NCBI RefSeq assembly: GCF_000698785.1
Contig: NZ_CP007536.1
Span: 2,070,001-2,102,000, forward strand
DNA: 32,000 nt
Source: Nitrososphaera viennensis EN76
GTDB lineage: Archaea > Thermoproteota > Nitrososphaeria > Nitrososphaerales > Nitrososphaeraceae
Reading direction: 5' to 3'
The notes under the pieces were generated by a model. It made no database searches. It was not told the DNA's origin and saw nothing but the letters and a program-made list of their open reading frames with translations. Within the stretch, counting starts at the first letter, position 1. Each line of letters opens with the position of its first letter. Positions 18,075-32,000 of the stretch are shown piece after piece. Position numbers and translations under genes: made by a program.

Positions 18075-18111
18075 TTAGGCAGGCCTAATTAGGTAAGCCT
18101 AAGTATTTAAA
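18073..18111 (-). promoter_or_regulatory. Promoter region of the wHTH gene: TATA-like box plus palindromic operator candidate
   Basis: TATTTAAA at 18104-18111 lies about 35-40 nt from the start codon. A perfect inverted repeat AATTAGGC-AG-GCCTAATT at 18073-18090 lies between the TATA box and the start. Confidence 0.4.
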
Positions 18112-18190
18112 CAGTCTTGCGGGGTTCTGTTACGTTCTCGTGGGTTGTGCGCGTGTACGGGTCGTGTTAACTTTCGTGGGCTCACAAAAA

Positions 18191-18610
18191 TCAATACGCG
18201 TTGTTTTCCTTCCAGATTCTAACGCGCCACCATGCAACATAAACAGGTGCGCTAATAATCAGCCAAAGCAAATACACTAGATTGCTGTTAGCCGACCCTA
18301 TTACCGTCAACACTAGCGCGAGCGAGCCGTATCCTTTAGCACCGAAAAGTTGTTTGAGGTTTTGGTGTTCAGGCACAAGTGCTACAATGATTGAAAGAAG
18401 CAAGTACATGCCAAGGAATCCCGCCCATTCCGCAAGTTCGATAGTGGCAAGCATGACAATATACGGAACTACATTGAAGATGATCGTCCATCTGCTAACA
18501 AACCACGATTCGACAATGATGCCCCAAAAGATAGTGAAAATCGCTACCAGTATAGCGCCTTGCGTCGGGTCAAGAATGGGCACTGTAATTTGTTCTAGAA
18601 AACTTGTCAA
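18191..18610 (-). CDS. Integral membrane protein (about 4 TM), passenger of element A
   Basis: 139 aa and strongly hydrophobic. The stop lies 9 nt inside the left subterminal repeat. Confidence 0.6.
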   Translation of the reverse strand: MTSFLEQITVPILDPTQGAILVAIFTIFWGIIVESWFVSRWTIIFNVVPYIVMLATIELAEWAGFLGMYLLLSIIVALVPEHQNLKQLFGAKGYGSLALVLTVIGSANSNLVYLLWLIISAPVYVAWWRVRIWKENNAY

Positions 18611-18819
18611 TTAGCGCACTAGATAAGTTTGATGTTGATATGGAGATATTCCTGAACAAGCACATTCTAAGAATGAGCGCTGAGGATAATCTAAGGTCAA
18701 CCATCAAACTATTCGGCAAGTACAAACCGCATTGCGTGCCTTACATTCTAAAGAAATTCAGGAAAAGAAAATGCGATTGCTGCAATGGCACTGGTTTTCT
18801 TGATGATCACTCATCTTGA
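18604..18819 (+). CDS. Possible small protein with a single DnaJ-type CxxCxGxG motif
   Basis: 71-aa ORF (TTG start, internal ATG possible) ending in KCDCCNGTGFLDD. It overlaps neighbouring ORFs at both ends. Confidence 0.25.
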   Translation: MSISALDKFDVDMEIFLNKHILRMSAEDNLRSTIKLFGKYKPHCVPYILKKFRKRKCDCCNGTGFLDDHSS

Positions 18820-18992
18820 GTAGCAGTACCTGCCTCAATCTCAATATGTTTGTTCTTGACGATAAACTTGATTGTTTCAGGTTGTCCGAGAGCGTCATAC
18901 ACGGGTTTAGGGATAGAACTCTGTGCTCCGCGTCCTTCGCTAAAGTTAACCCCCACTTCAAATTCAGTAGCGTCTTTCTTCCACTTGGGCAT
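18807..18992 (-). CDS. AbrB/SpoVT-like small DNA-binding protein (candidate element regulator)
   Basis: 61 aa. SSIPKPVYDALGQPETIKFIVKNKHIEIE fits the swapped-hairpin AbrB pattern (xIPkxxxxxLG...). It is divergent from the transposase across the operator-like array. Confidence 0.5.
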   Translation of the reverse strand: MPKWKKDATEFEVGVNFSEGRGAQSSIPKPVYDALGQPETIKFIVKNKHIEIEAGTATQDE

Positions 18993-19018
18993 TACTCACC
19001 ATCCACCTTACAAAGCGG

Positions 19019-19095
19019 TATCTTCGTATATAACGGTATCTCCGAAGATAACAAAAGGTATTTATATCTACGAAGATATCGTATCTACGAAGATA
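19019..19095. promoter_or_regulatory. Array of four quasi-palindromic TATCT-NCGA-AGATA sites upstream of and overlapping the transposase start
   Basis: TATCTTCGTATA at 19019-19030, TATCTCCGAAGATA at 19037-19050, and TATCTACGAAGATA at 19065-19078 and 19082-19095. Confidence 0.5.
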
Positions 19096-20231
19096 TGACA
19101 CCACCGCCAACAGCTCCGACACGACAACTAGACCGCAACGAAAAGGCGCAAAAGATTGTATGGACTAAAGGCCAAATCAAGCGTTACAACGAGAACCACT
19201 ATGTTGTACAGTCGCAGTCTGGCCGCGGTGCGTACGTTGTCATATCCACAGAAGCAGGCTGGAATTGTACGTGCCCTGACCACAGCTACCGCCAAGTGAA
19301 ATGCAAACACATCCTTGCAGTCGAGTTTTCGATAGAGCTGCGCAAGCAGGTGCAGTCATATGTAAACGTCATTCCAGAAGTCGCGGTAAACTCCTGCAAG
19401 TACTGCGCTTCTGAAAACATCAAGAAGGACGGCCTGCGCCACAACAAGTACGGCGACATTCAGGTATTCCTTTGCAAAGACTGCAACAGGCACTATACCG
19501 TAAACATCGGCTTTGAAGGAATGAGAGCAACCCCGCAGATGATTACAACAGCAATGCAGCTATACTTTTCTGGGGAAAGCCTGCGCTCGGTGCAGAAGTT
19601 CCTTAGACTGCAAGGTGTTAACATGAGTCATGTCGCGGTGTACAAGTGGATAAAGAAGTACGTCGCTCTGATGCAGGGCTATCTCGACAAAATCACTCCA
19701 AAAGTGTCTAGCACTTGGCGCACGGACGAAATGTATGTGAAAGTGCAAGGCAACATGAAGTACCTCTATGCCCTAATGGACGACCAGACAAGGTTCTGGA
19801 TTGCGCAGCAGGTCAGCGAAAGCAAGTACGTCCAAGATGTTAGGCCGATGTTCATTGACGGCGCAGCTACGGCAAAGAAAAAGCCTCGCGTACTAATCAG
19901 TGACGGCGCGCAGAACTTCCACGTTGCATGGAAAAAGGAGTACAAGGATGAAAAAGCCGTACACATCCAGCACATCCACATCAAGGGCGACAACAATAAC
20001 AACAAAATGGAACGTATGAATGGAGAGATCCGCGACCGTGAAAAGGTCATGCGCGGCCTAAAGAAAATCGACACTGCAATCTTGCAAGGGTATCAACTTT
20101 ACCACAACTACTTCCGCGAACACGAAGGGTTAGATGGCAAAACACCAGCAGAAGCAGCGAACATCCAGATTAAGGGAGCTAACAAGTGGATTACTGTGAT
20201 TCAGAACGCATCAAGAGACCTGATCAACTAA
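19095..20231 (+). CDS. IS6/IS26-like DDE transposase with N-terminal SWIM zinc finger and zinc ribbon
   Basis: 378 aa from ATG 19095. The track ORF upstream extension overlaps the AbrB-like gene and is rejected. SWIM CTCPDHSYRQVKCKH, ribbon CKYC...CKDC, and DDE blocks WRTDEMYVKVQGNMKYLYALMD, LISDGAQNF and NNNNKMERMNGEIRDREKVMRG resemble IS26 DETYVKV, TD and NNRIE..H..K.R. Confidence 0.9.
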   Translation: MTPPPTAPTRQLDRNEKAQKIVWTKGQIKRYNENHYVVQSQSGRGAYVVISTEAGWNCTCPDHSYRQVKCKHILAVEFSIELRKQVQSYVNVIPEVAVNSCKYCASENIKKDGLRHNKYGDIQVFLCKDCNRHYTVNIGFEGMRATPQMITTAMQLYFSGESLRSVQKFLRLQGVNMSHVAVYKWIKKYVALMQGYLDKITPKVSSTWRTDEMYVKVQGNMKYLYALMDDQTRFWIAQQVSESKYVQDVRPMFIDGAATAKKKPRVLISDGAQNFHVAWKKEYKDEKAVHIQHIHIKGDNNNNKMERMNGEIRDREKVMRGLKKIDTAILQGYQLYHNYFREHEGLDGKTPAEAANIQIKGANKWITVIQNASRDLIN

Positions 20232-20237
20232 GAGAAG

Positions 20238-20468
20238 TTGAGAGCCATAGAACAACTCATGGACGTACTCAAGATAATAGGAAAAGTTTCACCAATCATA
20301 TTGCTTTTAGGACTTGTCTTGTTCGAGGTATTAGTCCTATACGAGCATAGAGCAGACAATCTATTGCCAATCATTTTCTTGACATCATTCGTGATGATCA
20401 TGGTGGGAATAATTGGTACTTTGTGGACATATGTGATGTACCCAAGATTATTTTCTCGGACTGGTTAA
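20238..20468 (+). CDS. Small two-TM membrane protein, conserved passenger
   Basis: 76 aa with two hydrophobic helices, immediately downstream of the transposase. A positional counterpart sits at 27415-27612 in element B. Confidence 0.45.
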   Translation: MRAIEQLMDVLKIIGKVSPIILLLGLVLFEVLVLYEHRADNLLPIIFLTSFVMIMVGIIGTLWTYVMYPRLFSRTG

Positions 20469-21182
20469 GATGGGAATGAGTGAGATGGCTGCACCGATTA
20501 CTGCAAGAGGAATTGCTAGATATACCGCTGCGCGCCCAAGTTCAACCTGCTGAGAATCCTCAAGAGACACTATGTTTATGAAAGCAGAATTGCTAGCTAT
20601 GACGTTCGCAGTACCACTAGTCTCATTGAAGTTTGTTCCCAAAAGTATACCAAATTGGCCGCCCGTAGCATACCGTATGGTTCCTGTTCCCTCATAATTG
20701 AAACCATTTGGATTATGCACTTTATCTTTAACATTGACTTTTTGCAGGAGAATGGCGCAGGCATTTTGCGAACCGTACTTATCAACAGTACCTTGCGGAC
20801 AAAAAGTACCGTCAAATGTCAACAAGAAATATGAGGGTAGATCGGAATAGCCTAATCCTCCCTCTCCTCTCAGTTGATGGTTTGGAGCTAAGCGGCTGTA
20901 TACTGTGATATTTTTTTGTGCGGCGATCGAACCTTGAGACTCTAGATTTACTGTGATGTACATCGTTTCGTTGAGTTTAGCAGGATTCGAGATGTTGAGA
21001 AAATATGGAGCAAACGTACTCTCCCTTGACACAACTTGGTTAATTTGCAGGATAACAAAGCCTGATGAGATGCTAATTGCGAAAATTATCGCACCGGCGA
21101 TGGCTAGTCGTACCTTTAGACTAGGCTCAAGAGGAGAATTTGGATTAATAGGCGGTCTTTTATCGGGATTCCTTCTTACCAT
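20448..21182 (-). CDS. Doubly membrane-anchored extracytoplasmic protein, conserved passenger (paralog of 26695-27465)
   Basis: 244 aa with N- and C-terminal TM helices. Shared blocks with the element B protein are NITVYSRLAP/NITAFAKLQP, YFLLTFDGTFCPQGTVDKYGSQNAC/YFLWFDGSYCPTRPVDVYSSIPQC and IRYATGGQFGILL/IRYATAGVYGVAL. Confidence 0.7.
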   Translation of the reverse strand: MVRRNPDKRPPINPNSPLEPSLKVRLAIAGAIIFAISISSGFVILQINQVVSRESTFAPYFLNISNPAKLNETMYITVNLESQGSIAAQKNITVYSRLAPNHQLRGEGGLGYSDLPSYFLLTFDGTFCPQGTVDKYGSQNACAILLQKVNVKDKVHNPNGFNYEGTGTIRYATGGQFGILLGTNFNETSGTANVIASNSAFINIVSLEDSQQVELGRAAVYLAIPLAVIGAAISLIPILTSPRK

Positions 21183-21370
21183 GAGGAATTGCGGCCACCC
21201 AAGCTGCGGTCTGACGATGCCAATTTCACCAGCTTAACCATTGCCAAGCTCACGAGAGTGTCATAAAAAGGTGATCTGTGTACAGAAAAATCTTCCATGC
21301 CTAGCCCACGAAAGTTAACGGCCTTTCAAAATCAGGCTAGCCCACAGTAAGTTAACAGAACCTCTTGCGG

Positions 21371-21442
21371 GGTTCTGTTAACTTATCGTTTGCTCAATGA
21401 TATATGAGACAGATGCCTAGCCGACGGCAAATTAACAGAGCC
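21371..21442. mobile_element. 72-bp MITE-like remnant made of two abutting element ends
   Basis: It starts with GGTTCTGTTAACTTATCGTTTG (left-end type) and ends with CCGACGGCAAATTAACAGAGCC (right-end type). The ends are inverted relative to each other at about 15/22 by eye. No clean TSD was seen. Confidence 0.4.
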
Positions 21443-21706
21443 TGCGGCCAAATTCCGAAGCAGTCTTTAGTTTATCAGAGGCCCGTTTCGTCTTCAGACA
21501 TCCTGAAAACATTCGGCTGCAAAAGGTCAACTGCTATCCTGTTATCGCTACCGGCAGTTATTTTCACTATCGGTTAGCCTGCAAAATCAATTGCGATCAC
21601 GCCCGATCTTGCAGCCTTTAGCATCTTGCCCAGCCAGCTACCTCGTCGCCTTGGCCTATGTGCAGATGCTTGTTGTCTAACATGGCTGCTGCATAAAATG
21701 CGACTA

Positions 21707-22009
21707 TTAGGAGGTTGAAGCTGCTAACGTTCTCTGCCTATCTTCTTCCTCTTCTGCAATCCTGTGCGCCTCCGCAGTGACTACAACCTTGCCATTGACG
21801 GTCCATCTTGCCGCTCCCAGGTCCTGTCCGTCTGGCCCTTGAGCCTTTGGCATGTCGATAACAAGGTTGTCGAAGGTGTACGTCACAGAAGCGCCTTTGC
21901 CCTTGAGCCTGTCAAAAAGCTGACCAATTATTTCTGCCCATTGCGACGACATTTGGTGCGTGCCACTATCCTTGTCCTTCTGGCTCGCATCCCGCCTGCT
22001 GTTACTCAT
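21707..22009 (-). CDS. Hypothetical small protein (possibly amphi-Trp-like, unverified)
   Basis: 100-aa ORF with a charged N-terminus, a helix (WAEIIGQLFDRLKG), then a beta-rich segment (VTYTFDNLVIDMP...WTVNGKVVVTAE). Confidence 0.5.
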   Translation of the reverse strand: MSNSRRDASQKDKDSGTHQMSSQWAEIIGQLFDRLKGKGASVTYTFDNLVIDMPKAQGPDGQDLGAARWTVNGKVVVTAEAHRIAEEEEDRQRTLAASTS

Positions 22010-22142
22010 ATACGAGAGAGGTATGCGTGGCTTTCAATTAAAACAGTTTACTTTGCAGTCTCTCTATTCCAAAACCGCAAAGATGTGGGTCTCTGCATCT
22101 GACCTTCAAAAACACAGAGAAATCCGCTGAGTGAACAGAGAA

Positions 22143-22673
22143 TTAGCGTCGGACCCTTCTAATCCTGATGAAGAGTGCGTTTTCTGTAATCTGGGTTTCA
22201 GGTTTGATGTTCATGAATCCTGATGCAGCATGTTCCATAAGCCGACTGAGATAGTGGGACCAATTCTCTCCCATGTTGTGCTGGATTATAAGAATACGGC
22301 TATCCTCGCTTATTTCGTGGCGATAGTTAAAACCCGAGACCCTTATCCATCTCTCAAAAAGCTCAAAAATCGATTCTTCCGTACGCTCTTTTGTCATGAT
22401 CATCATGGTTTCATCCGTCAAGCCTCTGGCGACATCCTCCGCCAGCGCATCTACCTGCTCTTTGGTCAGCGAATCAAACAGCCTCTTGATCACTCCCTTG
22501 CGTATCGGGATAAATCCTGCTCTTGCGGCGTTTGCGTACCATTCAATATGGGATCTTACAATCTGATTCAATAACGTGTTGAGGTTGATTTGTTTCTGCT
22601 CAGCCTCTAGCCTGAGTTGGTCAAGCATTGCTTTATCAAACCTGAATGTGGCGGCTTCAGTATGATTGGTCAA
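22143..22673 (-). CDS. Ribbon-helix-helix (CopG/Arc/MetJ-type) regulator with a C-terminal domain of unknown function
   Basis: 176 aa. The N-terminal ATFRFDKAMLDQLRLEAEQKQINLNTLLNQIV fits the RHH strand-helix-helix pattern. Confidence 0.7.
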   Translation of the reverse strand: MTNHTEAATFRFDKAMLDQLRLEAEQKQINLNTLLNQIVRSHIEWYANAARAGFIPIRKGVIKRLFDSLTKEQVDALAEDVARGLTDETMMIMTKERTEESIFELFERWIRVSGFNYRHEISEDSRILIIQHNMGENWSHYLSRLMEHAASGFMNIKPETQITENALFIRIRRVRR

Positions 22674-23380
22674 GTCTAGTTGACCTAGAACGCATTCTTC
22701 GGTCTTTTATTATTTTTGGAATATTTAATGTTAATATCCTATTTCTTGTAGAAAATATATGATACAAAATTATGTAATTTGCATTGAATGTGGATGTCAT
22801 ATGAATAAAACACGAAAATATTGTGCAATATGGCTGACTGATGTGCACATTTTGTCCCAATATTTGGGTCCGCCATGTTAGATATTTTACACAAAGTACA
22901 CAATGTACTCATATTGCTTATAGCAAGGTTTTGTAACAAAAGACGTGCATATACCCCAAAGAAAGCCACCGCCCCTCTCCTCGTCAGTTAAAGGTGCGTC
23001 TTCTGTTGATGAGCTGGGGCAGGCTTCGTGTTTAGGTTGTTTACGCGGATGGTGGCGACCATGTATACAAGAGAACACGATAGATATGATGATGACGATC
23101 TTGTGTGTTCCCGCATGATGCAATAGCCGCCGTCTGACAAAGAACATCATCATGACGCGACGGCCGGTAACGCAAACAGGAGCGCGCGTGTGCATGTGAA
23201 AAAAGCCAGGGTGAGCCGCCACACCGCCACTGCCCTCGATAGAGGGAGAAGGAGATCATCCCTCCTCTTTTTTCTGTTGTTCAACAAACGCCGAGGCAAA
23301 ACCTTAGCTGGTTCAGGATCTATTGAAAATTAATTATTCCCTGTTCTGTTGAAGAATTCTCAAGTTACCCTTCTCAACGC

Positions 23381-23386
23381 TTTAAA
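23381..23386 (+). promoter_or_regulatory. TATA-box candidate (TTTAAA) for the 144-aa secreted protein, leaderless geometry
   Basis: CTCAACGCTTTAAAGCC lies about 29 nt upstream of ATG 23412. The context CTCAA(C/T)GCTTTAAA is shared with the paralog promoter at 24116-24132. Confidence 0.45.
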
Positions 23387-23411
23387 GCCATAGGGACCTG
23401 ACCGGCCCTTG

Positions 23412-23846
23412 ATGTCAAGCATAAGGCACAACAGGACGGCGATGCTATCATTTGTGATGGTAGGTGTCGCACTTGCATCATTATTCATCTTTGTTGCTTC
23501 GACCCATGCGTTTGCCCAAGGAGGCCAAGGTGGCGAGGGCGCCGCAGGCTCCGGCGGGAACGAGACTGCCGCGCCTGAAGTTGCTCCAGAAAGACTAAAG
23601 TTCTTTGACAAGCACGACCCTGCGCACACATGGAACGAGACTGCGCTTTCATACTTTGATTCAAAAGGAACAGAGCTGATGTGCGACAAGGTGTACAACG
23701 GCACCATCTACTATCAGATCAATGAAAACTTGTTCAAGTGCGACGACTTTGGCCTCTTTATAGCTGGCGACGAACAGGCCATGACGACAAACGGCAAGGA
23801 CGGACAGGACGGGCAAGATGGACAGGACGGCAAGGATGGAGTCTGA
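23412..23846 (+). CDS. Secreted Gly-rich protein with a collagen-like (G-x-D) tail and a conserved Cys-containing domain
   Basis: Signal peptide ending HAFA-QGG, followed by GGQGGEGAAGSGG. The domain FFDKHDPAHTWNE...MCDKVYNGTIYYQ...FKCDDF is shared with the 291-aa paralog. The tail is GKDGQDGQDGQDGKDG. ATG 23412 is preferred to TTG 23409. Confidence 0.75.
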   Translation: MSSIRHNRTAMLSFVMVGVALASLFIFVASTHAFAQGGQGGEGAAGSGGNETAAPEVAPERLKFFDKHDPAHTWNETALSYFDSKGTELMCDKVYNGTIYYQINENLFKCDDFGLFIAGDEQAMTTNGKDGQDGQDGQDGKDGV

Positions 23847-24126
23847 CTCCTTTTTTCTTTGCAGCAGCAACAACGGTATTTTATTGTCGTCATCCCTGCA
23901 CATCTGTTCGCGACTTAAGCCGCGGCCAAAGGGAAACTCTGGATATCGGTCTTTTGAGCTAGAAAATACCATTGACGACTGAATTAAGGCAGCGGTGCGA
24001 GATGCCATTGCCTTCACATCATCCAACATTGTAAATCACATAGCCGATACATTTTACATAATGACATAAAATCTCCCTCTAGAATTAATGGTTATAATCA
24101 CATTATGAGTTCAGGCTTCTCAATGC

Positions 24127-24132
24127 TTTAAA
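24127..24132 (+). promoter_or_regulatory. TATA-box candidate (TTTAAA) for the 291-aa secreted protein, leaderless geometry
   Basis: CTCAATGCTTTAAAACA lies about 28 nt upstream of ATG 24157. Confidence 0.45.
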
Positions 24133-24156
24133 ACATTGACAGCATGGTAACGCAAG

Positions 24157-25032
24157 ATGTCGAATAACAACAACATCATCAAAAACAAAACGGCACTCCT
24201 ATCAATGCTGATAGTAGGTGCCGCAATAGCATCATACGCCTTTGGCGCGCCAGCCAACGCGTTTGCTGCCGGCGACGGCGGAAACGGGGGTAACGGCGGA
24301 AATGGCGGCGACGGCGGCGATGGAGGACTCCTCATTGGTAACGGCGGCGACGGCGGAAACGGGGGTAACGGTGGAGATGGCGGCGACGGCGGAAATGGCG
24401 GCGATGACGACAGCGAATACAAGAAGCACTGGAAGAACGATGACGCTGAAGACCACGTATACAAGAAACACTGGAAGACCAATCATGACGACGATGACGA
24501 TGACAGCAACGATGAAGATGAAGACTATGGAAACAAGAAGCACTACAGCAACAATGATGATGACGACTATGACAGAAAGTACAAGAGATACTACAACGAC
24601 GACGATGACAAATACTATGGCCCAAAGCACTTCAAGTACAAGGAGAAGTTCAGTGACGACGATGACGACGGGTACTACTACAGCGAGCACTGGAAGAAGA
24701 AGTTCAAATATCACCACGACGAAAGCTACTACAGCAACGTAAAGATCATCATCCACAACAACTACTATAACGACTATGACGCAGGCTCATTCTATGTGCA
24801 CTTTGACAACGAGGACTATGACAACGACGACAGCACAACGGTCTTCAAGTTCTACGACCAGCACTTTGAAGAGCATCAATGGGATGAGGAAGGCAAGTTC
24901 TACTACGACGAGGACGGAAACGAGTACCAGTGTGATGACTTTTACATGGGAAGCGTCTACTACGACTTTGACGGTGCCTTCTACAAGTGCGACGACCTGA
25001 CGTTCAGCGAAGACTTTGAAGAAGGCTACTGA
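24157..25032 (+). CDS. Secreted low-complexity protein: (GGN/GGD) repeats, then an Asp/Tyr/Lys/His-rich region and a conserved C-terminal domain
   Basis: 291 aa. Signal peptide ending NAFA-AGD, then GDGGNGGNGGNGGDGGDGG twice (a DNA tandem repeat of about 63 bp at 24281-24393). Poly-D/Y/K stretches follow. The C-terminal FYDQHFEEHQWDE...QCDDFYMGSVYYD...YKCDDL is homologous to 23412-23846. Confidence 0.8.
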   Translation: MSNNNNIIKNKTALLSMLIVGAAIASYAFGAPANAFAAGDGGNGGNGGNGGDGGDGGLLIGNGGDGGNGGNGGDGGDGGNGGDDDSEYKKHWKNDDAEDHVYKKHWKTNHDDDDDDSNDEDEDYGNKKHYSNNDDDDYDRKYKRYYNDDDDKYYGPKHFKYKEKFSDDDDDGYYYSEHWKKKFKYHHDESYYSNVKIIIHNNYYNDYDAGSFYVHFDNEDYDNDDSTTVFKFYDQHFEEHQWDEEGKFYYDEDGNEYQCDDFYMGSVYYDFDGAFYKCDDLTFSEDFEEGY

Positions 25033-25312
25033 GAGTGACCTTCTCTCCCTCTCCTTTTTTTCTTTTCTTTCCTATCTTATCATATAGAGCAATCGCATGC
25101 CATTGGCACTGTGCGCAGATTGCCGTGCAGCCGGCGCAGTAGTCTTTTCCTTCTCTTTCTATATGTCCTATAACGTGAATGCGGCATGATACACGAGTCT
25201 GCTCATTTGGCGTTTTGCGTTAATAACTGACGAACATATTTTTCAATCGAGATTGACTGCAAAAGGGACACGTGCCTGAAAACTGCTATCTTGGTATTTC
25301 TTTTTCTTGTCG

Positions 25313-25519
25313 CTACTGACTCTCAACCGGCCAGTTGCTCCTCCGGTGCTTGCCCACGAGAGGTTTAAGGTGGAGAAGGAGATCCTGGAGTTGATGCAAA
25401 GACGGGTTTATCTCTCGCATCGCGCCGACATTTACTCCAAGTGCAGCAAGTCCCTCATACGTCTCTGCGATCGTCTCTTTTTCTCTTTCTTTTTCCCTAG
25501 ATGCGTACGTCATTGCCAT
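25313..25519 (-). CDS. Hypothetical small protein, translationally coupled to the upstream zinc-ribbon gene
   Basis: 68-aa ORF whose ATG overlaps the TAA stop of the 74-aa ORF (TAATG at 25517-25521). It competes with a plus-strand ORF at 25307-25573. Confidence 0.3.
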   Translation of the reverse strand: MAMTYASREKEREKETIAETYEGLAALGVNVGAMREINPSLHQLQDLLLHLKPLVGKHRRSNWPVESQ

Positions 25520-25743
25520 TATCTGCTACTACCCCCGCCTCCAGATACCTCTGGAATATTTGGAAGTTCATAGTTTGCGCTGGACAAGCACCTGGCGCAG
25601 AGCCTCTGCATGATGATTACCGTCCCTTGATCCACTTCAAATAGCGCCTCGGCAGTTGCGACATCTCCACATGTATTGCAGTAGTAGGGTTTCGACTTGT
25701 TCTTTCTCTGACCTAGGGGTTTAATGTCATAGTGTCTTAACAT
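25519..25743 (-). CDS. Small zinc-ribbon protein
   Basis: 74 aa with CNTCG...CARC (two CxxC pairs). Confidence 0.55.
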   Translation of the reverse strand: MLRHYDIKPLGQRKNKSKPYYCNTCGDVATAEALFEVDQGTVIIMQRLCARCLSSANYELPNIPEVSGGGGSSR

Positions 25744-25865
25744 ACTATCGTCAAGCAGCGACTCATTGATACTTAAGCCGTGCTCACCGGCGGAGCAGTG
25801 TGATCATTCGCTGGAATAGTTATTCACTTTTGTACTCTGTCCAAGATAGATTACAATCTGAGGTA

Positions 25866-25885
25866 ATCATAATCATGATTATGAT
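25866..25885. repeat. Perfect 20-bp palindrome ATCATAATCATGATTATGAT
   Basis: Self-complementary when read directly. It lies about 125 bp upstream of the 74-aa zinc-ribbon gene. Confidence 0.7.
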
Positions 25886-26072
25886 GCCAAGATGCCTGAT
25901 AATCTTTTAAACAGACACGCTTCTCCCGCCTGCCTGTCATGCGCGTAAAAAGTTTTTCTTCTAAAGCACAACAGCTGCAAAATCGATCCAGCCAAATTCC
26001 ATGCTTGGTTTATATGCGATTTTTTATCTGGTTAGTGGCCAGAAATAGAAATTTTGTGTACATAGAGATTCG

Positions 26073-26133
26073 GGTTCTGTCACGTTGACGGGTGATACCA
26101 CAAAATTTTCTGCCTGTAACAGCGCGGGTGATG
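26073..26133. repeat. Left terminal inverted repeat of element B (61 bp, two internal sub-repeats)
   Basis: GGTTCTGTCACGTTGACGGGTGATACCACAAAATTTTCTGCCTGTAACAGCGCGGGTGATG. The sub-repeats are CTGTCACGTTGACGGGTGAT (26077-26096) and CTGTAACAGCGCGGGTGAT (26114-26132). Confidence 0.9.
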
Positions 26134-26136
26134 AGC

Positions 26137-26679
26137 TTATTTTGTCCATTCTTGGATTATCTCAAATCGTCTGTTTCCAGCACCTAACTTTGCAATCATG
26201 CCATACTCGCCTTGCTTCCCACCTGCATAGGTATATTCTACAACATAACCAAAAGACAGTATTTTCTTATGAGGATCATCAGAGAGCTCCATGATATAGA
26301 ACTTTTCACTATTCGGCATGATGGTGCCCATTGTATTTTTATCATCTTGTCCTTTCAAATCAGCGATTGTTAGTACTTTGTCAGAAAGATCACTTTTCCC
26401 CACTGCGGATAGCGCAGGTAATCCACCATAGTTTGTTAACACCACTTCAATCTTATCTTGCGCGATCATGATTTCTTTTGTACCTATCCAAGGTCTTAAC
26501 CTACTATCTATCTGTTGTTTGGTCATCTTAGATTGCCAAACTGCAACACCCGCCGCAACTGCTGCCGCTGCTGCCGTAGCTATTTGCGCCAAGTCCAAAG
26601 CCGTCTGGAACTCGCTCAATTGATGAAATTGGCGTGCATACAAGCTCATTAAGCTAATGCTTTTATGGTGCCCTAACAA
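26137..26679 (-). CDS. N-terminally anchored beta-rich hypothetical protein, passenger specific to element B
   Basis: 180 aa from the TTG start, or 170 aa from ATG at 26647-26649. It has an Ala-rich TM segment (LAQIATAAAAAVAAGVAVW) and then a soluble domain. The stop lies 4 nt from the left IR. Confidence 0.6.
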   Translation of the reverse strand: MLGHHKSISLMSLYARQFHQLSEFQTALDLAQIATAAAAAVAAGVAVWQSKMTKQQIDSRLRPWIGTKEIMIAQDKIEVVLTNYGGLPALSAVGKSDLSDKVLTIADLKGQDDKNTMGTIMPNSEKFYIMELSDDPHKKILSFGYVVEYTYAGGKQGEYGMIAKLGAGNRRFEIIQEWTK

Positions 26680-26694
26680 GCTTGAGCTGGCTAT

Positions 26695-27465
26695 TTGGCA
26701 AATTCAAGACCGCTCATAGAGACAGTGGCAGTTCTCGCCTTCATATCTCTCATAGTTGCTGAAGGTGTCTTGGCTATCTTGAGCGTTAGTATAATTGTCA
26801 AAGCCGTAGAGCCTAGAGGTTATCCAATTGCATATCAAAGTCATGATATAGAATTGATAGATCCATCCATGCCTACCAACAACCTTCAACTGCATTTGAC
26901 TATGGCTGCGTTTGTTATTGGAGCGCAAAGCAACATCACGGCTTTTGCGAAACTCCAACCTGTAGGAGAAGATAGGGCATTGTACTCTGAACAAAACCGC
27001 ACTATTCCAGAACAATACTTTCTTTGGTTTGACGGTAGCTATTGCCCAACTAGACCAGTTGACGTTTATTCCTCCATACCCCAATGCAAACTTGAACTTG
27101 ACAGGTATCCACAAGATGACGCTGACTGGTCGAATGTGTACTGGCAAGGTACCTATAGCGACTTTCCAGATGAGTTTAGGTACAGCACAATAGGCATAAG
27201 ATATGCTACGGCTGGCGTGTACGGTGTCGCATTAACTGATTCGCCTGATCGTGTGAATCCTTCGCTATCAGAACCTTTCATTACAATATCTGATCCCAGT
27301 GTTACACATACATTCTTTCTTGGCATTGAAGCGAACCAACTTTCCCTAACCAATCTCGGACTTTCATTCTTGATTTTACTACTAACCATTGTGCCAATAC
27401 AGTTGAAGCTATTTTCATTTCTCCGACGTAAGGGCGTCTTTGGCAAGCATGACAATGCTACCTAA
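26695..27465 (+). CDS. Doubly membrane-anchored extracytoplasmic protein, conserved passenger (paralog of 20448-21182)
   Basis: 256 aa with N- and C-terminal TM helices and the shared sequence blocks listed for 20448-21182. TTG start, so the exact start is uncertain. Confidence 0.7.
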   Translation: MANSRPLIETVAVLAFISLIVAEGVLAILSVSIIVKAVEPRGYPIAYQSHDIELIDPSMPTNNLQLHLTMAAFVIGAQSNITAFAKLQPVGEDRALYSEQNRTIPEQYFLWFDGSYCPTRPVDVYSSIPQCKLELDRYPQDDADWSNVYWQGTYSDFPDEFRYSTIGIRYATAGVYGVALTDSPDRVNPSLSEPFITISDPSVTHTFFLGIEANQLSLTNLGLSFLILLLTIVPIQLKLFSFLRRKGVFGKHDNAT

Positions 27466-27612
27466 TAACCCGATTACTAGCAGGTAGATTACTATCGGCT
27501 CGCGCTGACCTGAAACGACACTATAAACCAACCACAATATGCCAATATTCAGAAGTAAGAGCATACACGCAGCAATTCCACCTTCAATTAAATCACGAGT
27601 TTGTTTCTGCAA
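27415..27612 (-). CDS. Small two-TM membrane protein, conserved passenger
   Basis: 65 aa with two hydrophobic helices. Its ATG lies 1 nt after the transposase stop. It overlaps the 3' end of the 256-aa gene convergently, as in element A. Confidence 0.45.
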   Translation of the reverse strand: MQKQTRDLIEGGIAACMLLLLNIGILWLVYSVVSGQREPIVIYLLVIGLLGSIVMLAKDALTSEK

Positions 27613-27613
27613 T

Positions 27614-28735
27614 CTAGTTTTGCAATTTGGTTGCGTTTTGGATCACGGTGATCCACTTGTTGGTGCCCTCAATCTTTATTCCCGCTTGGCTCGCTGGCGT
27701 GTCGCCGTTCAGACCTTCATGCGGTCTAAAGTAGTTGTGGTACAGCTGGATGCCTTTCAGAATTGGCGTATCGGATTTTTTCAGACCGCGCATAACCTTT
27801 TCTCTATCGCGAAATTCACCGTTCATCCTCTCCATCTTATTGTTGTCGTGCTGGTTCTTTGTCATGACACTTACCTCATGGATGGTACGCGGGTTTGCTA
27901 TTGTGAAAAATTCCCTCTTGTACGCTTCTTTATATGACCACAAGCCGTCAGTGATTATCTTCGCTGGTCTTTTGCCAGCTACTTTTTTGCCCTTTGCAAA
28001 TAGTCCTCTAGCATCGTGGCGTTCTTTGCTGTCTGCAACTTCCTGAGCCATCCAGAACCGGGTTTCGTCATCCATCATGGCGAAAAGGTACTTCAGGTTG
28101 CCCTTTACCTTGACATATACCTCGTCAGCTCTCCAAGTATCTGAAACATTCGGTGTTATCTTTTCTAGGTATTCGTTCATCAGGCTCGTGTACTTGGCGA
28201 TCCAGCGATAGGTGCTCATGTGGCTTTTCTGGATTCCCTGTAATGCTAGGAATTTCTGTATGCCGCGCAGACTTTCGCCTGAGAAGTACAACTGCATACA
28301 GGTTGTTATTACCTGCGGAGTTGCGCGCATCTTTTCAAATCCAAGATTGAACGAGAACCTTTTGCCACAGTCGCGGCATCTCCATCTCTGAATTTCACCA
28401 TGCTTTGTTTTGCGCTTGGCATCCTTTACAATGTGTGTAGAATTGCAGCTAACACAAGCCTGAGCGTCAATTGGCTTTATGGTGGCAACAACCTTTTGAA
28501 CAGTGGCGCGCAGTTTTTGGCTAAATTCAACCGCGAAAATGTGCTTGCACTTTTGACCGCGGTACATGTGGTCAGCACATGAGCATAGCCATCCGAGCTC
28601 GCTAGCAAAGATGTGGTATTCGCCGTTGCCGCTTTGCGACCTTACGTAATAGTTGGTTTCGTCAACACGCCTTACCTGACCTTTCAATTGCGCTATCGTC
28701 AAACCCTTTTGTTCGCGATTGTTGGTTGCTTGCAC
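27614..28735 (-). CDS. IS6/IS26-like DDE transposase with N-terminal SWIM zinc finger and zinc ribbon
   Basis: 373 aa with a GTG start (an in-frame stop lies just upstream). SWIM CSCADHMYRGQKCKH, ribbon CVSC...CRDC, and DDE blocks WRADEVYVKVKGNLKYLFAMMD, IITDGLWSY and NNKMERMNGEFRDREKVMRG. It is clearly homologous to 19095-20231 but substantially diverged. Confidence 0.9.
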   Translation of the reverse strand: MQATNNREQKGLTIAQLKGQVRRVDETNYYVRSQSGNGEYHIFASELGWLCSCADHMYRGQKCKHIFAVEFSQKLRATVQKVVATIKPIDAQACVSCNSTHIVKDAKRKTKHGEIQRWRCRDCGKRFSFNLGFEKMRATPQVITTCMQLYFSGESLRGIQKFLALQGIQKSHMSTYRWIAKYTSLMNEYLEKITPNVSDTWRADEVYVKVKGNLKYLFAMMDDETRFWMAQEVADSKERHDARGLFAKGKKVAGKRPAKIITDGLWSYKEAYKREFFTIANPRTIHEVSVMTKNQHDNNKMERMNGEFRDREKVMRGLKKSDTPILKGIQLYHNYFRPHEGLNGDTPASQAGIKIEGTNKWITVIQNATKLQN

Positions 28736-28736
28736 T

Positions 28737-28790
28737 TATGGCACCATAATGTATTATGGCACCATACTATATATTTGTTATGGTGCCATA
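28737..28790. promoter_or_regulatory. Three copies of the 12-bp quasi-palindrome TATGG(CA/TG)CCATA between the transposase and AbrB-like genes
   Basis: TATGGCACCATA at 28737-28748 and 28755-28766, and TATGGTGCCATA at 28779-28790. Further copies lie at 29010-29021, about 29037-29047 (GTGGTGCCATA) and 26664-26675 (TATGGTGCCCTA). Confidence 0.5.
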
Positions 28791-28792
28791 AA

Positions 28793-29020
28793 CTAATGGC
28801 GTTTAGGTGCTTGAGAGCGTTCCTTGAAAACCAGCTTGTGATCCTCGACCTTAGGCTCAAGCTCCTGCTTTTCCTTCCATCCAAGCTCGTTGACGATTTC
28901 TTCTGGAATTGTAACAACATACTTGAAGTGGTCTTTATCGTTGTAGGTGTAGGCAAATCGCTTTTGCAGTTTGACGATTCCCTTTTCTCCTTTGACCATG
29001 ACGCTCCAGTATGGCACCAT
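28793..29020 (-). CDS. AbrB/SpoVT-like small DNA-binding protein (candidate element regulator)
   Basis: 75 aa. YVVTIPEEIVNELGWKEKQELEPKVEDHKLVF fits the AbrB swapped-hairpin pattern. The start codon lies inside one copy of the palindromic motif. Confidence 0.55.
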   Translation of the reverse strand: MVPYWSVMVKGEKGIVKLQKRFAYTYNDKDHFKYVVTIPEEIVNELGWKEKQELEPKVEDHKLVFKERSQAPKRH

Positions 29021-29090
29021 AGGTTAGATAAGCGTTGTGGTGCCATAAGTTAGAAGATATTTTGCGGACGCTGCGACCGCAAAATTCGCC

Positions 29091-29151
29091 CATCACCCGC
29101 GCTGTTACAGGCAGAAAATTTTGTGGTATCACCCGTCAACGTGACAGAACC
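29091..29151. repeat. Right terminal inverted repeat of element B (61 bp)
   Basis: Exact reverse complement of 26073-26133. Confidence 0.9.
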
Positions 29152-29249
29152 GAGATTCGCTATGGTTATATTTTGTAAGGTTATCCCTTAAAAACCACTA
29201 TGAATAATTATTACCACAGCCTTAAGTGTCACGTTTTTCATAAGGACAT

Positions 29250-29822
29250 ATGAGGACAACTAGGATTGCAGGCGTAAAATCACCTACGTGGGTAAGGGCC
29301 CTGCAAATCGGAATAGGCGCTATTGCCATCGTGCTATCACTTGCTGCAATAATCTACCCTGTTCTCACGGTCGTGGCAACCTTGACAGTAGCAGCAATAA
29401 TCCTGCTTTTGTTTGGTATTGAAAATATAGTTGCGGGGATATTCGTATACAAACAAGCCCGGGCCGCTCACATTGGTCTTGGAATACTGGTCATAATACT
29501 TGCAGTTCTCGTCATGGCGTTTCCTCTAGGCGCCGCCATGTTTGTAGCGATACTGGCAGGCGTTGCCTTGATGTTTAGCGGTTTTGCAAGCATAGTGGCA
29601 GGTCTTATGGGAGTAAGCGAAAGAGCTACTGACACTACTCCGAGCAGAGGTGCCAGGATATTCAGCGTCATTGCAGGAGCGCTAGCCGTTGCATTGTCTG
29701 TTATGATACTTGCATTTCCAGCATTTGGAATAGAACTTGTGGCTATTGTGATCGGGATAGGGCTCTTGGTTTATGGCATCAGGCTGGTCGTCACGGGAAT
29801 CAGCGGCAGGGGGCAGGCCTGA
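29250..29822 (+). CDS. HdeD/DUF308-like membrane protein
   Basis: 190 aa with six predicted TM helices in repeated pairs. GIENIVAGIF and LVVTGISG are motifs typical of DUF308 repeats. Confidence 0.75.
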   Translation: MRTTRIAGVKSPTWVRALQIGIGAIAIVLSLAAIIYPVLTVVATLTVAAIILLLFGIENIVAGIFVYKQARAAHIGLGILVIILAVLVMAFPLGAAMFVAILAGVALMFSGFASIVAGLMGVSERATDTTPSRGARIFSVIAGALAVALSVMILAFPAFGIELVAIVIGIGLLVYGIRLVVTGISGRGQA

Positions 29823-30385
29823 GCGCCCGCATCATCTTCCTCCTCGTCGCATAACACCATGGCAAGCTGAAATGAAGAAGCAGCCGCCAAGGCAGGGTGA
29901 TCTGGATACTTGAAAGTCTGGAAGACTCTCTTCTTCTTTTTCAAGTTGCCCGCCGTGGCTTTACTTCCTTTTTTCATTTCTTCTGGCGCGGAGTCCATGT
30001 CCGCGTAAAAAGGCTTCCAAATGTGTCCGTTTATGTCCTGGAAGGCGCGACCGTACATCCAGCCATAGTCTTGCGCTTCTCTGTATTCAGAGCCTCCGGC
30101 TGCCACGGCTTTCTTGATCATCTCGTCAACTTTTGCACGACTTTCAAGGGACAGCGCAACTAACGACTCGGTGCTTTTGCTAGAGTCGCAGATCTCTCTG
30201 CCCGGTATGAAGCTCTTGAAGAACTTTTCAGTCAACAGCATGGCGTAAATGTCCTCGCTGATCACCATGCAGGCGGCGTTCTCGTCGGTAAACATTGGGT
30301 TGAACCCGAATCCCAGATTGCCAAAAAACTCCATCGTCTTTTTGAGGTCTTTGACTGGCAGGTTGACGAATATCTTGGTACTCAT
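29771..30385 (-). CDS. VOC (glyoxalase superfamily) protein with an unusual ~70-aa C-terminal extension
   Basis: MSTKIFVNLPVKDLKKTMEFFGNLGFGFNPMFTDENAACMV...QDYGWMYGRAFQDINGHIW matches the common ~140-aa VOC family. The ORF continues for 204 aa and overlaps the convergent HdeD-like gene by 52 nt. Confidence 0.8.
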   Translation of the reverse strand: MSTKIFVNLPVKDLKKTMEFFGNLGFGFNPMFTDENAACMVISEDIYAMLLTEKFFKSFIPGREICDSSKSTESLVALSLESRAKVDEMIKKAVAAGGSEYREAQDYGWMYGRAFQDINGHIWKPFYADMDSAPEEMKKGSKATAGNLKKKKRVFQTFKYPDHPALAAASSFQLAMVLCDEEEDDAGAQACPLPLIPVTTSLMP

Positions 30386-30419
30386 ATGTTCCCTGTAGCA
30401 AATAGCCTAAAAGCAATTG

Positions 30420-30428
30420 CCCCCCCCC
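30420..30428. repeat. C9 homopolymer (G9 on the minus strand), 35-43 nt upstream of the VOC gene start
   Basis: Read directly from the sequence: TTGCCCCCCCCCAC. Confidence 0.7.
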
Positions 30429-30613
30429 ACAAGGAGAGGCTCTTCCCGTAAAACACGTCGTTTATCTTCCAGAAAGTACGTCACTATCAACCCGGTCGTG
30501 CACATAGACAAGGAGAGCAATAACTTGGAAGAGGCCGAGGTACTTGGCGTGCAAAAGGATGACTATGTTATCTATGGCAGCGCAGTTGAACAACATAAAA
30601 AGGGAGAAGGGAA

Positions 30614-31015
30614 CTAGGCACGGAAGAGTTGGCACGTCTTATCTTTGTGCATATCTCTCAGCCAATCTACGTGGGCCTTGTTTGTTATCTTGTTGCCGTC
30701 CAACACAGTTTTCTTGCCATCGGTCAGCTTGCTTCCGACCAGAATCTCCTCTTTTCGGATAGACTCGTCTGGACCGAACTCCACAGTTAACCTGAGGAAA
30801 TTCTTCCGATTGTCATATATGTTCACAAGCTCGTATTCTGTAAAGTCGGCATCGTGCTTCTTGTCGTGAATTGTGGATATTTCCTTGAAGATTAGTCTTG
30901 ATTTTGGAGGCATTTTTGTCCGCGCCAATTCGCTCAAGAGTGATGCGTTCTTTTTCCAGAATGGTCCTAGTTCCATTCGACGAACTTTCTGGGTTGTTAT
31001 CGCTGCAGAAGACAT
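30614..31015 (-). CDS. Hypothetical protein
   Basis: 133-aa ORF with balanced, Lys-rich composition and no recognisable motif. Confidence 0.5.
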   Translation of the reverse strand: MSSAAITTQKVRRMELGPFWKKNASLLSELARTKMPPKSRLIFKEISTIHDKKHDADFTEYELVNIYDNRKNFLRLTVEFGPDESIRKEEILVGSKLTDGKKTVLDGNKITNKAHVDWLRDMHKDKTCQLFRA

Positions 31016-31093
31016 GCAATATTATACTCAGGCTTTGATTTAACCGATTTGTCTGCAGTGGCTTTTCAAAAAGTCAGAAGTCTCATAAGATGG

Positions 31094-31318
31094 CTAATTC
31101 GAGCTGCGCATGTCTACATAGGCCACTCTGACAGTCTTTATCTTGTACTTCATCAATCTAGATCTGGTCCGCAGCCGATAGTTGCAACATGGACGATTAG
31201 GACCCATCCATGTAATGAATATGTCGCATATCCTGCAGCGCTTTTGCCCTGCTGCATATCTTATCCCATCCGTAGGCCTAGTCGCCCTGTGCCGAACACA
31301 GATATTCCTGCAACTCAT
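31094..31318 (-). CDS. Small zinc-ribbon protein (C..C / CxxC / CC...RLR type)
   Basis: From the internal Met: MSCRNICVRH...RYAAGQKRCRICDIFITWMGPNRPCCNYRLRTRSR. Its ATG overlaps the TGA of the upstream 105-aa ORF (ATGA at 31315-31318). Confidence 0.55.
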   Translation of the reverse strand: MSCRNICVRHRATRPTDGIRYAAGQKRCRICDIFITWMGPNRPCCNYRLRTRSRLMKYKIKTVRVAYVDMRSSN

Positions 31319-31632
31319 TGCCAGTAAGGGTAGACCTCGCCACCAAGCCACTTTATGTCTCTGTCAGCAGCTATAGCCATTACCGTTTCTAGGTCAGATT
31401 GCAGATCTATCTGATAGTGGCCGTGTCCATGATTGTTTGGAAATCTGCCTACAAGATAGTGCATCTGTTTCGACTTGCCATCTTTATTGATCCCCTGAAT
31501 GTAATGGATTTCAAGAAAGAACCTCTGTTTTCTCTCGCGGGGTATTTTCTTTTCAGCATCGAGGACTTTATGAGCAGGAACGGGTCGATGTTCTGCCACC
31601 TTCTCTGAAGCGACGCTACAATGCTGTCGCAC
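31315..31632 (-). CDS. Hypothetical protein, first gene of a coupled pair with the zinc-ribbon gene
   Basis: 105-aa ORF with a GTG start and a His/Gly motif (NNHGHGHY). It has an ATGA overlap with the downstream gene. An overlapping alternative-frame ORF (31449-31703) leaves the 5' end uncertain. Confidence 0.45.
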   Translation of the reverse strand: MRQHCSVASEKVAEHRPVPAHKVLDAEKKIPRERKQRFFLEIHYIQGINKDGKSKQMHYLVGRFPNNHGHGHYQIDLQSDLETVMAIAADRDIKWLGGEVYPYWQ

Positions 31633-31769
31633 TCTTGTGTCACGTGTTCTACAGACATGGGCAAGGTGGATAGATCACATATTTTCAAGAGGTAGGATTG
31701 CACTGTACCTCATTGCACGCAATATTTGGCAAGATGAAGGGTGTACGGGAAACAGAAAACCCTAGACGG

Positions 31770-31880
31770 CTACAGGGTTAAAGGATGGACACCGTCTAAC
31801 TGCAGCCGTTGCAGGCCTGACTTGGACCCTTAAAGGCCTGCGACGGCTGACCGGAACCCTTGCAAGGGCAACCCTGTAAG
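31770..31880 (+). ncRNA. Candidate structured RNA (unclassified)
   Basis: This stretch has no track ORF. A 16-bp stem pairs 31803-31818 with 31834-31849 and contains one T-G position that is a G-U wobble only on the plus strand. It is enclosed by ACAGGGTT (31772-31779) / AACCCTGT (31870-31877). There is also a small hairpin CCCTTGCAAGGG (31857-31868). Confidence 0.2.
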
Positions 31881-32000
31881 CTGCAGGTATACAGTGCATT
31901 GCAAAACCTGCCAACATGCATTAGCTGCAAAACCTTCCGCGGACCTGATTTGTCATGCAGTGCAGACATATCATATATACTTGAAAGGGGTCTCTGTCAG

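Follow-up and report, generated by a model that had tools for sequence, protein, structure and literature searches.

Introduction

Insertion sequences (IS) of the IS6/IS26 type are known as tiny one-gene elements, and cargo is moved only by flanking pairs of them. Element B, which is described here, is a 3079-bp unit with five open reading frames (ORFs) at positions 26073-29151 of a 32,000-nucleotide stretch of the Nitrososphaera viennensis EN76 genome. This whole stretch was analysed and is called the window; a window position equals the CP007536 coordinate minus 2,070,000. Element B is a genuine transporter IS (tIS) of the IS6 superfamily. Its transposase has already been catalogued, while its ends, target-site duplication and cargo have not.

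Classical IS6 elements are 0.7-0.9 kb long, encode one transposase of 220-250 amino acids (aa), are bounded by 14-20-bp repeats and move only via cointegrates, as is also stated for IS26 itself (PMC7986276). Their tips follow a rule of GG with a cTGTt motif (PMC7986276). Element B shares with IS26 and the classical members the GG tips with a cTGT core and the 8-bp duplication (PMC7986276), and the DDE blocks of the transposases can be aligned. In contrast, element B is four times longer and has multi-site ends and a DNA-binding regulator of its own.

Members of the long IS6 clades reach 1.76 kb. The clostridial ISCpe7 group, which is clade h in Varani et al. and clade VII in Harmer and Hall, is marked by an N-terminal Cys-rich zinc finger, a helix-turn-helix (HTH) as well as an IS6 DDE domain, all of which are found in element B. 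ISCpe7 also makes an 8-bp duplication, and the two transposases are about 30% identical over the zinc ribbon, the HTH, the DDE domain and a C-terminal RPH motif. It differs from element B in its length of 1274 bp, its single gene, its 12/15-bp repeats and the absence of a regulator gene and of cargo, and it has no counterpart of the SWIM finger region of element B (approximately residues 20-80). Harmer and Hall have called into question the placement of the long and the archaeal groups with IS26 (PMC6807381).

ISDsp3 from Dehalococcoides sp. BAV1 (Chloroflexota), a member of the "solo" branch of IS6, is the only IS6 member on record that carries a passenger gene. Its duplication measures 8 bp and its repeats (28/36 bp) are unusually long, as in element B. 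The comparison is with its published description, in which ISDsp3 measures 1456 bp and has one passenger gene and a 319-aa transposase said to be without an intact zinc finger, whereas in element B, which is 3079 bp long, the repeats measure 61 bp, two zinc modules of the 373-aa transposase are intact and the extra genes number four. ISM1 of Methanobrevibacter smithii, an element of ~1.4 kb with 29-bp repeats and an 8-bp duplication, may be a further relative.

In Table S3 of Krupovic 2019 (PMC6563490), the element B transposase (CP007536 2097614-2098687) is listed as IS6 with ISDsp3 as the best ISfinder reference (50.54%). The transposase of element A, a second element in the window (2089095-2090231), is likewise listed as IS6 with ISDsp3 as the best reference (53.2%). 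For N. viennensis EN76 the table contains 11 ISDsp3-like entries and six copies of a small ISNamo12-like IS6; it gives ORF coordinates only, and not ends, duplication or cargo (PMC6563490). An earlier sequence-only reading of the window had not recognised element B as a described type. As a statement of novelty this was overstated, since the ORF was already recorded as IS6/ISDsp3-like by Krupovic 2019 and ISDsp3 itself carries a passenger gene; the part that stands is that the full architecture was not found described. In the literature searched, with ISfinder outside the search, no description was found of obligatory extra genes together with bipartite covarying ends, a resident regulator and wide archaeal spread.

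Ends, target-site duplication and extent of element B

Element B is bounded by perfect terminal inverted repeats of 61 nucleotides (nt). The left repeat occupies 26073-26133 on the + strand and begins with the tip GGTTCTGT; the right repeat, at 29091-29151 on the - strand, is its exact reverse complement at 61/61 nt. Similarity extends to 72 nt at 96% (26073-26144 and 29080-29151). This pair is the sole inverted repeat of at least 25 nt in the window, and the 27-nt tip is found at these two places only, even if up to three mismatches are allowed, with 0.00 expected from shuffled sequences. The 8-bp sequence GAGATTCG adjoins both outer ends, at 26065-26072 on the left and at 29152-29159 on the right. 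The identity of the two copies is exactly 8 bp and stops at the ninth base. The tip GGTTCTGTCA follows the IS6 rule, with GG and an internal cTGTt motif. The G+C content of the whole unit is 0.447, against 0.54-0.59 over the first ~9 kb of the window.

Each repeat contains two direct copies of a motif. The first, CTGTCACGTTGACGGGTGAT, occupies repeat positions 5-24 and the second, CTGTAACAGCG-CGGGTGAT, positions 42-60; aligned with one gap, they agree at 16 of 20 positions. In the left repeat the copies form putative transposase-binding sites 1 (CTGTCACGTTGACGGGTGAT, 26077-26096) and 2 (CTGTAACAGCGCGGGTGAT, 26114-26132); the corresponding putative sites of the right repeat are at 29128-29147 and 29092-29110.

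The structural claims of the sequence-only reading were thus reproduced, namely the 61-bp perfect repeats (61/61 nt), the 8-bp flanking duplication, which was recovered as GAGATTCG, the two direct copies of a motif of ~19 bp in each repeat and the four non-transposase ORFs (75, 65, 256 and 180 aa). Its remark that the element is larger than classical IS6 members and has far longer repeats also agrees with the values found here (3079 bp, 61-bp repeats, five ORFs).

Transposase and its IS6 affinity

The transposase gene (27614-28735, - strand) encodes a protein of 373 aa with a SWIM finger, a 4-Cys zinc ribbon, an HTH and an IS6/IS240-type DDE domain. The SWIM-type CxC...CxH finger is formed by C51, C53, C63 and H65, the zinc ribbon by C94, C97, C120 and C123, and the DDE triad by D204 (WRADEVYVKV), D263 (IITDG) and E302 (NNKMERMNG). 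In an alignment of 32 family members the eight zinc ligands and the DDE triad are invariant, and the element B transposase keeps every invariant residue. The transposase of element A passes the Pfam SWIM model.

The Pfam family DDE_Tnp_IS240 (PF13610) was matched with 68.6 bits against a cut-off of 27 (E 7.7e-19, model positions 2-137 of 139). The NCBIfam IS6 model was matched over its full length with 118 bits, a little short of the curated cut-off. The NCBIfam model for the IS1/IS1595 N-terminal zinc-binding domain was passed by the zinc ribbon (30.7 bits, cut-off 28), and the NCBIfam IS481 and IS3 models appeared as secondary matches. In a tblastn search against plasmids the best annotated relatives were ISCpe7-family IS6 transposases of Clostridium, which reached 30% identity across residues 94-360 (E 1e-22). 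Ordinary IS6-family genes were matched too, in more than 5000 records. The alignment with ISCpe7 begins at residue 94, the first Cys of the zinc ribbon. D204, D263 and E302 align with the DDE blocks of ISCpe7, whose sequence was taken from the actual record, and of IS26. The ends of ISCpe7 hold TCTGTTAAGTT, which resembles the tips of the element B family. The affinity to IS6 that had been read from the DDE blocks is therefore borne out by the Pfam match, by the ISCpe7-type nearest annotated relatives, by the alignment of the DDE blocks and by tips that fit the IS6 rule. No meaningful relative of the transposase was found in the PDB by sequence.

In public records these transposases are called only "DDE-type integrase/transposase/recombinase". 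The public annotation of the element B transposase has 357 aa and starts at 28687, whereas the 373-aa reading starts at the GTG at 28735. Residues 7-16 of the longer reading are conserved in at least 90% of 32 homologues, which places the true start upstream of that of the 357-aa annotation. Judged from this conservation, the public annotation is probably too short.

A family of related archaeal elements

A search of the protein collection with the element B transposase returned 5173 relatives at E <1e-5, nearly all of 360-390 aa. They come from Nitrososphaeria, Asgard archaea and many unnamed metagenome proteins, and a genome scan added Bathyarchaeia. For the family scan one genome was taken per species, which gave 80 loci, and each locus was searched for paired GGxxCTG-tipped ends around the transposase gene. 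Paired tips were found in 72 of the 80 loci, and in 60 of these 72 a perfect 8-bp direct repeat abuts the ends. When the position of the 8-bp repeat was displaced by 8, 16, 24 or 40 nt as a control, none was found at any locus. The family tip consensus is GGTTCTGT(T/C/G/A)A. Whole multi-gene units are thus bounded alike at many unrelated sites, in dozens of relatives, and the transposon reading of element B is upheld by its own repeats and duplication and by the 60 of 80 related loci with the same tips and a perfect 8-bp duplication.

The 60 delimited elements range from 2129 to 8093 bp, with a median of 3164 bp. No one-gene IS is found among them, none is near ~1.3 kb, and all carry extra genes inside the duplication. 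The uninterrupted repeat has a median length of 24 nt and reaches at least 57 nt in five elements, so that the 61 nt of element B fall in the top tenth. No near-identical copies were found among the 62 delimited elements, the best pair being 85% identical over ~1.3 kb.

The relative at locus L106 (167-2846) has a transposase 78% identical to that of element B, and the first 24 nt of one of its ends are the same as in element B. Its duplication (TGCTTTTT, a perfect 8 bp) and its cargo are both unlike those of element B. The other end of this relative diverges after 11 nt while the duplication is still perfect, from which it follows that the two ends of one element can differ considerably. Several family members (loci L027, L077, L086, L064 and L066) are on contigs of metagenome-assembled genomes (MAGs) labelled as bacterial (Limnocylindrales, Saccharibacteria, "bacterium"); these could reflect real inter-domain spread or mis-binning.

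The paired end motifs were analysed for 124 ends from 62 elements. The mean local alignment score between the terminal and the interior motif of the same end is 19.3. Exchanging the terminal motif for that of another element lowers the score to 13.5 +/- 0.29, and shuffling the interior lowers it to 11.9 +/- 0.23. Because the score falls when terminal motifs are swapped between elements, the interior copy covaries with the terminal copy within each element. Such covariation is the pattern expected of two sites per end that are read by one protein, as far as the sequences can tell. The proposal of two transposase-binding sites per end is accordingly favoured by the family as a whole (19.3 vs 13.5 +/- 0.29). 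Ungapped motif spacings cluster at 27-28 and at 37-38 nt, one helical turn apart, and elements A and B belong to the 37-nt class.

With confidence evenly divided, we propose that element B is a member of a very large group which still lacks a description as a group. Its members would be unit transposons of the IS6 superfamily with a SWIM finger, a zinc ribbon and an HTH ahead of the DDE domain, bipartite covarying ends with motifs 27-28 or 37-38 nt apart, an element-encoded repressor of the AbrB, ribbon-helix-helix (RHH) or zinc-ribbon type, and obligatory extra genes. Its range may comprise Nitrososphaerota, Bathyarchaeia, Asgard archaea and a few MAG contigs labelled bacterial.

Comparison with other families

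Transporter IS are also known from other families, such as the IS1595 subgroups with passenger genes, and like element B they are repeat-bounded units with genes unrelated to transposition. IS1595 was considered as the family of element B and rejected: only the shared N-terminal zinc-binding model matches (30.7 bits), no IS1595 transposase model does, and the best match of the catalytic region is IS6. The Tn3 family is characterized by a 5-bp duplication, repeats of ~38 bp, a TnpA of ~1000 aa and a resolvase with a res site. It was rejected as well, on account of the 8-bp duplication, the 373-aa IS6-type transposase and the absence of a recombinase among the ORFs of element B.

Several transposase-binding sites per end are a feature of Mu, Tn7 and IS21, which also have the accessory ATPases MuB, TnsC and IstB. 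By analogy, element B resembles them in having a terminal site and an internal repeat of the same motif at a spacing compatible with the helical repeat. The transposases are unrelated, in contrast, and no accessory ATPase is found among the ORFs of element B with Pfam and NCBIfam.

AbrB-like gene and palindromes

Upstream of the transposase gene and in the same direction lies a gene for a small AbrB/MazE-like DNA-binding protein (28793-29020, - strand) of 75 aa, or 68 aa from the second ATG. It passes Pfam PF04014 narrowly (25.3 bits, cut-off 24.7) and matches PHROG 661 (E 2.6e-9). With a hidden Markov model (HMM) built within the family, AbrB-like ORFs were found in 31 of 62 elements, element B among them. 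They are usually oriented away from the transposase gene, at a distance of ~100 bp upstream; in element B the two genes are co-directional, a layout that is also seen in a relative with a 72%-identical transposase. A further 26 elements have an RHH-like or zinc-ribbon-like ORF at the equivalent position, so that a small ORF of one of the three types is upstream of the transposase gene in 57 of the 62 elements. A Pfam scan of 50 of these small ORFs gave support for 30 only: 18 matched MazE/AbrB, about 10 matched RHH families and two matched a zinc ribbon.

The palindrome TATGG-N2-CCATA, with no more than one mismatch, occurs seven times in the window, and six of these sites are in element B, where 0.44 would be expected. 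Three exact copies (28737-48, 28755-66 and 28779-90) bracket an A+T-rich, TATA-like stretch directly upstream of the transposase start. Two more, one exact (29010-21) and one with a single mismatch (29036-47), are at and upstream of the start of the AbrB-like gene. The sixth, an operator-like palindrome with one mismatch (TATGGTGCCCTA, 26664-26675), lies in the spacer of two divergent cargo genes. To judge from their sequence and placement, these palindromes are probably operators for the AbrB-like protein of element B. Element A has four TATCT-N4-AGATA sites in the equivalent spacer.

Operator arrays of this kind were tried as a family-wide feature and rejected, because only elements A and B rise above shuffled controls; a few relatives carry palindrome pairs near the transposase start.

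Cargo genes

The three remaining ORFs of element B encode predicted membrane proteins. The ORF at 26137-26679 (- strand; 180 aa, or 170 aa from the ATG at 26649) has one predicted membrane span and no known domain. NVIE_024930 (26695-27465, + strand; 256 aa, annotated as 246 aa) has hydrophobic segments at both termini, which suggests a surface-anchored protein. A small ORF directly downstream of the transposase gene (27415-27612, - strand; 65 aa, 49 aa in public gene calls) has two predicted membrane spans. Gene callers on public assemblies also find the ORFs of element B, some with shorter starts. The 256-aa ORF is homologous to a 244-aa ORF of element A, and a 76-aa, two-span ORF in element A matches the 65-aa ORF in position.

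None of the three membrane-protein ORFs has a match in Pfam, NCBIfam, PADLOC or PHROGs, and the 256-aa protein has only two relatives among 5.8 billion proteins. With three membrane-protein ORFs inside its repeats and duplication, element B has the composition of a tIS.

Among the relatives, seven elements carry N6-methyltransferase/restriction fusions. Further cargo includes an N4/N6 methyltransferase with an Mrr-type nuclease domain, DUF3800 and a DUF4325 STAS-like protein, as well as a proteasome-like subunit and other doubly anchored surface proteins. The gene after the regulator gene is a co-directional, coiled-coil-rich ORF of 85-300 aa in 31 of 57 elements and is diverse in sequence. 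A conserved third core gene at this place was rejected, as it would be present in 31 of 57 elements only and phmmer clusters contain no more than three members; this ORF was treated as variable.

Element A and the neighbourhood

Element A extends over 18123-21362 (3240 bp; 18115-21370 with its 8-bp duplication TCTTGCGG) and has ends of ~60 nt with two motif copies each. Its SWIM/IS6-type transposase (19095-20231, 378 aa) is 55% identical to that of element B. It also contains a divergent 61-aa AbrB-like ORF and membrane-protein cargo that is partly homologous to the cargo of element B.

A 72-bp mini-element with family-type ends is present in two direct copies 21.4 kb apart. One is at 21371-21442; the other ends at window position 28, so that positions 1-28 hold part of it, and is completed in L101 (9160-9231). 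Neither copy has a duplication of its own. Their outer flanks, CGCGGCCA and TGCGGCCA, match at 7 of 8 positions, and the chance of a match of at least 7/8 is ~4e-4. With window 29-21370 between them, the two copies are suggestive of the trace that an IS6-type cointegrate or pseudo-compound transposon would leave.

The G+C content is 0.42-0.50 over ~18000-32000 and 0.54-0.59 in the first ~9 kb, with mixed values (0.46-0.59) in the rest of the upstream part. The region ~18000-32000 contains the two transposons and otherwise mostly hypothetical genes, and it probably represents an acquired DNA island. It contains, at 24157-25032 on the + strand, a 291-aa ORF with a signal-like N-terminus followed by GNGGD-type repeats that are encoded by tandem repeats with a 9-nt period. 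The predicted protein has long Asp-, Tyr- and Lys-rich runs and matches no Pfam family. No Rfam families or tRNA genes were found in or near element B.

Proposed mechanism and alternative explanations

Very probably, element B is an autonomous DDE transposon of the IS6 superfamily, on the branch nearest to ISDsp3 and ISCpe7, and a transporter IS that moves five genes as one unit. The transposase would bind two sites at each end, one terminal and one 37 nt further in; two sites per end fit the extra DNA-binding modules of the protein (SWIM finger, zinc ribbon and HTH). It would then bring the ends into synapsis and join them to a target cut with an 8-bp stagger. By binding the six TATGG-N2-CCATA palindromes at three promoter regions, the AbrB-like protein would repress the transposase gene, its own gene and, probably, the cargo genes, and so keep transposition low. 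The three membrane-protein genes would be cargo and take no part in movement.

Several observations weigh against this account. The NCBIfam IS6 model NF033587 narrowly missed its curated cut-off (118.1 bits against 125, model positions 1-201 of 202). The AlphaFold model of the transposase from 32 homologues is poor, with a mean pLDDT (predicted local distance difference test) of 63, a pTM (predicted template modelling score) of 0.33 and confident positions only at ~10-80, and so lends no structural support. The binding of the transposase to both motifs and that of the AbrB-like protein to the palindromes are proposed from the sequence. In the other 60 elements exact palindrome arrays are not above shuffled controls, and this detail may thus be specific to elements A and B. 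Exact-protein look-ups with the transposase and with the product of the flanking DUF308 gene yielded no insertion other than this one, always in the same strain. In exact scans of metagenome contigs of the Joint Genome Institute (JGI), neither the 22-nt end nor the reconstructed empty site (TGTGTACATA-GAGATTCG-CTATGGTTAT) was found, and a transposase scan of IMG/VR was likewise negative. In the public contigs searched there is no second copy, empty site or insertion polymorphism for element B.

That the insertion is recent and still active, as the sequence-only reading had supposed, is a reasonable guess from its sequence; the parts needed for movement (repeats, duplication and transposase ORF) look intact. 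It is rather unlikely that element B is instead a fixed relic, a transposon by origin which is no longer mobile and now forms a resident gene island of N. viennensis EN76. Such a relic would agree with the single copy, with a next-closest transposase in the protein collection that is 78% identical and comes from another sample, and with the identical sequence and site in every assembly or metagenome contig that contains element B, including the 2014 genome and two later complete genomes. However, these samples appear to be one laboratory strain, and therefore the missing polymorphism says little. The perfect 61-nt repeats, the perfect duplication and a transposase ORF that is intact and keeps all family-invariant residues, including the DDE triad and the eight zinc ligands, also speak against decay. 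The three complete assemblies with the locus have lengths of 2,527,938 bp (CP007536), 2,521,342 bp (CP103305.1) and 2,522,325 bp (CP104300.1) and are up to 6.6 kb apart; these differences could stem from IS/tIS movement between culture lines. A different doubt concerns the extent of the unit, as the three membrane-protein genes have no recognisable link to transposition, and a small IS made of the AbrB-like gene and the transposase gene might have come to lie beside unrelated host genes, with a stray second end enclosing them. This is hardly credible, since the 8-bp duplication lies right at the outermost ends of all 3079 bp and the end sequence does not recur inside. Each of the 60 delimited relatives has a length of 2.1 kb or more and extra genes within its duplication, element A has homologues of two cargo genes in matching positions, and at 0.447 the G+C content of the entire unit is lower than in the first ~9 kb of the window (0.54-0.59).

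For the transposon set out above, the route of movement is less certain than its identity. A route other than the replicative cointegrate of IS26, either cut-and-paste or copy-out/paste-in via a circle (as in IS3, IS30 and IS256), is quite possible, though not preferred. A C-terminal YNxxRPHxxLxGxTP motif is present in the element B transposase, is common to ISCpe7 and is missing from the IS26 sequence used. The same motif is found in the retroviral-integrase-like enzymes of IS3 and IS481, and the IS481 and IS3 models are secondary matches of the element B transposase. Harmer and Hall have argued that IS26 may differ in mechanism from the long and from the archaeal "IS6" groups (PMC6807381). 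On the other side, the best family match is IS6, and the pair of 72-bp mini-elements that brackets 21.4 kb with outer flanks matching at 7/8 would fit the footprint of an IS6-type cointegrate or pseudo-compound transposon. As for the AbrB/MazE-like gene, it is improbable that it serves as the antitoxin of an addiction (toxin-antitoxin) module that stabilises element B, and not as a regulator of the transposase. MazE/AbrB and RHH/CopG proteins, which occupy this position in the family, are classic antitoxin folds; there is a weak PHROG match to an antitoxin family, and in 31 of 57 relatives the small gene is closely trailed by a co-directional ORF of 85-300 aa. In element B, however, the gene with the antitoxin fold (PF04014) is followed by that of the transposase, and a toxin-like partner is missing: no ORF of element B matched a toxin family in Pfam, NCBIfam, PADLOC or PHROGs. 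Among the relatives the downstream ORFs vary greatly, most are coiled-coil-like and none matches a toxin family, and the palindromes of element B are at the promoter region of the transposase. Antitoxins also autoregulate, so that both roles are compatible.

Significance

In element B and its relatives the IS6-type catalytic domain is found in single units of 2-8 kb with their own regulator, multi-site ends and a variable gene load. More than 5000 related transposases are present in public data, from archaea of soil and sediment in which genetic work is difficult. Only the transposase ORF is entered in published catalogues, where thaumarchaeal IS are treated as elements with one or two genes; how large these units are, what they carry and how much they contribute to gene flow have therefore probably been underestimated. 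N. viennensis is a cultivated, ammonia-oxidising soil archaeon, and an intact, self-contained transposon with defined ends and a likely repressor/operator pair could seed genetic tools. If the proposed group is real, it would be a major overlooked vehicle for restriction-modification, defence-associated and cell-surface genes in these archaea.

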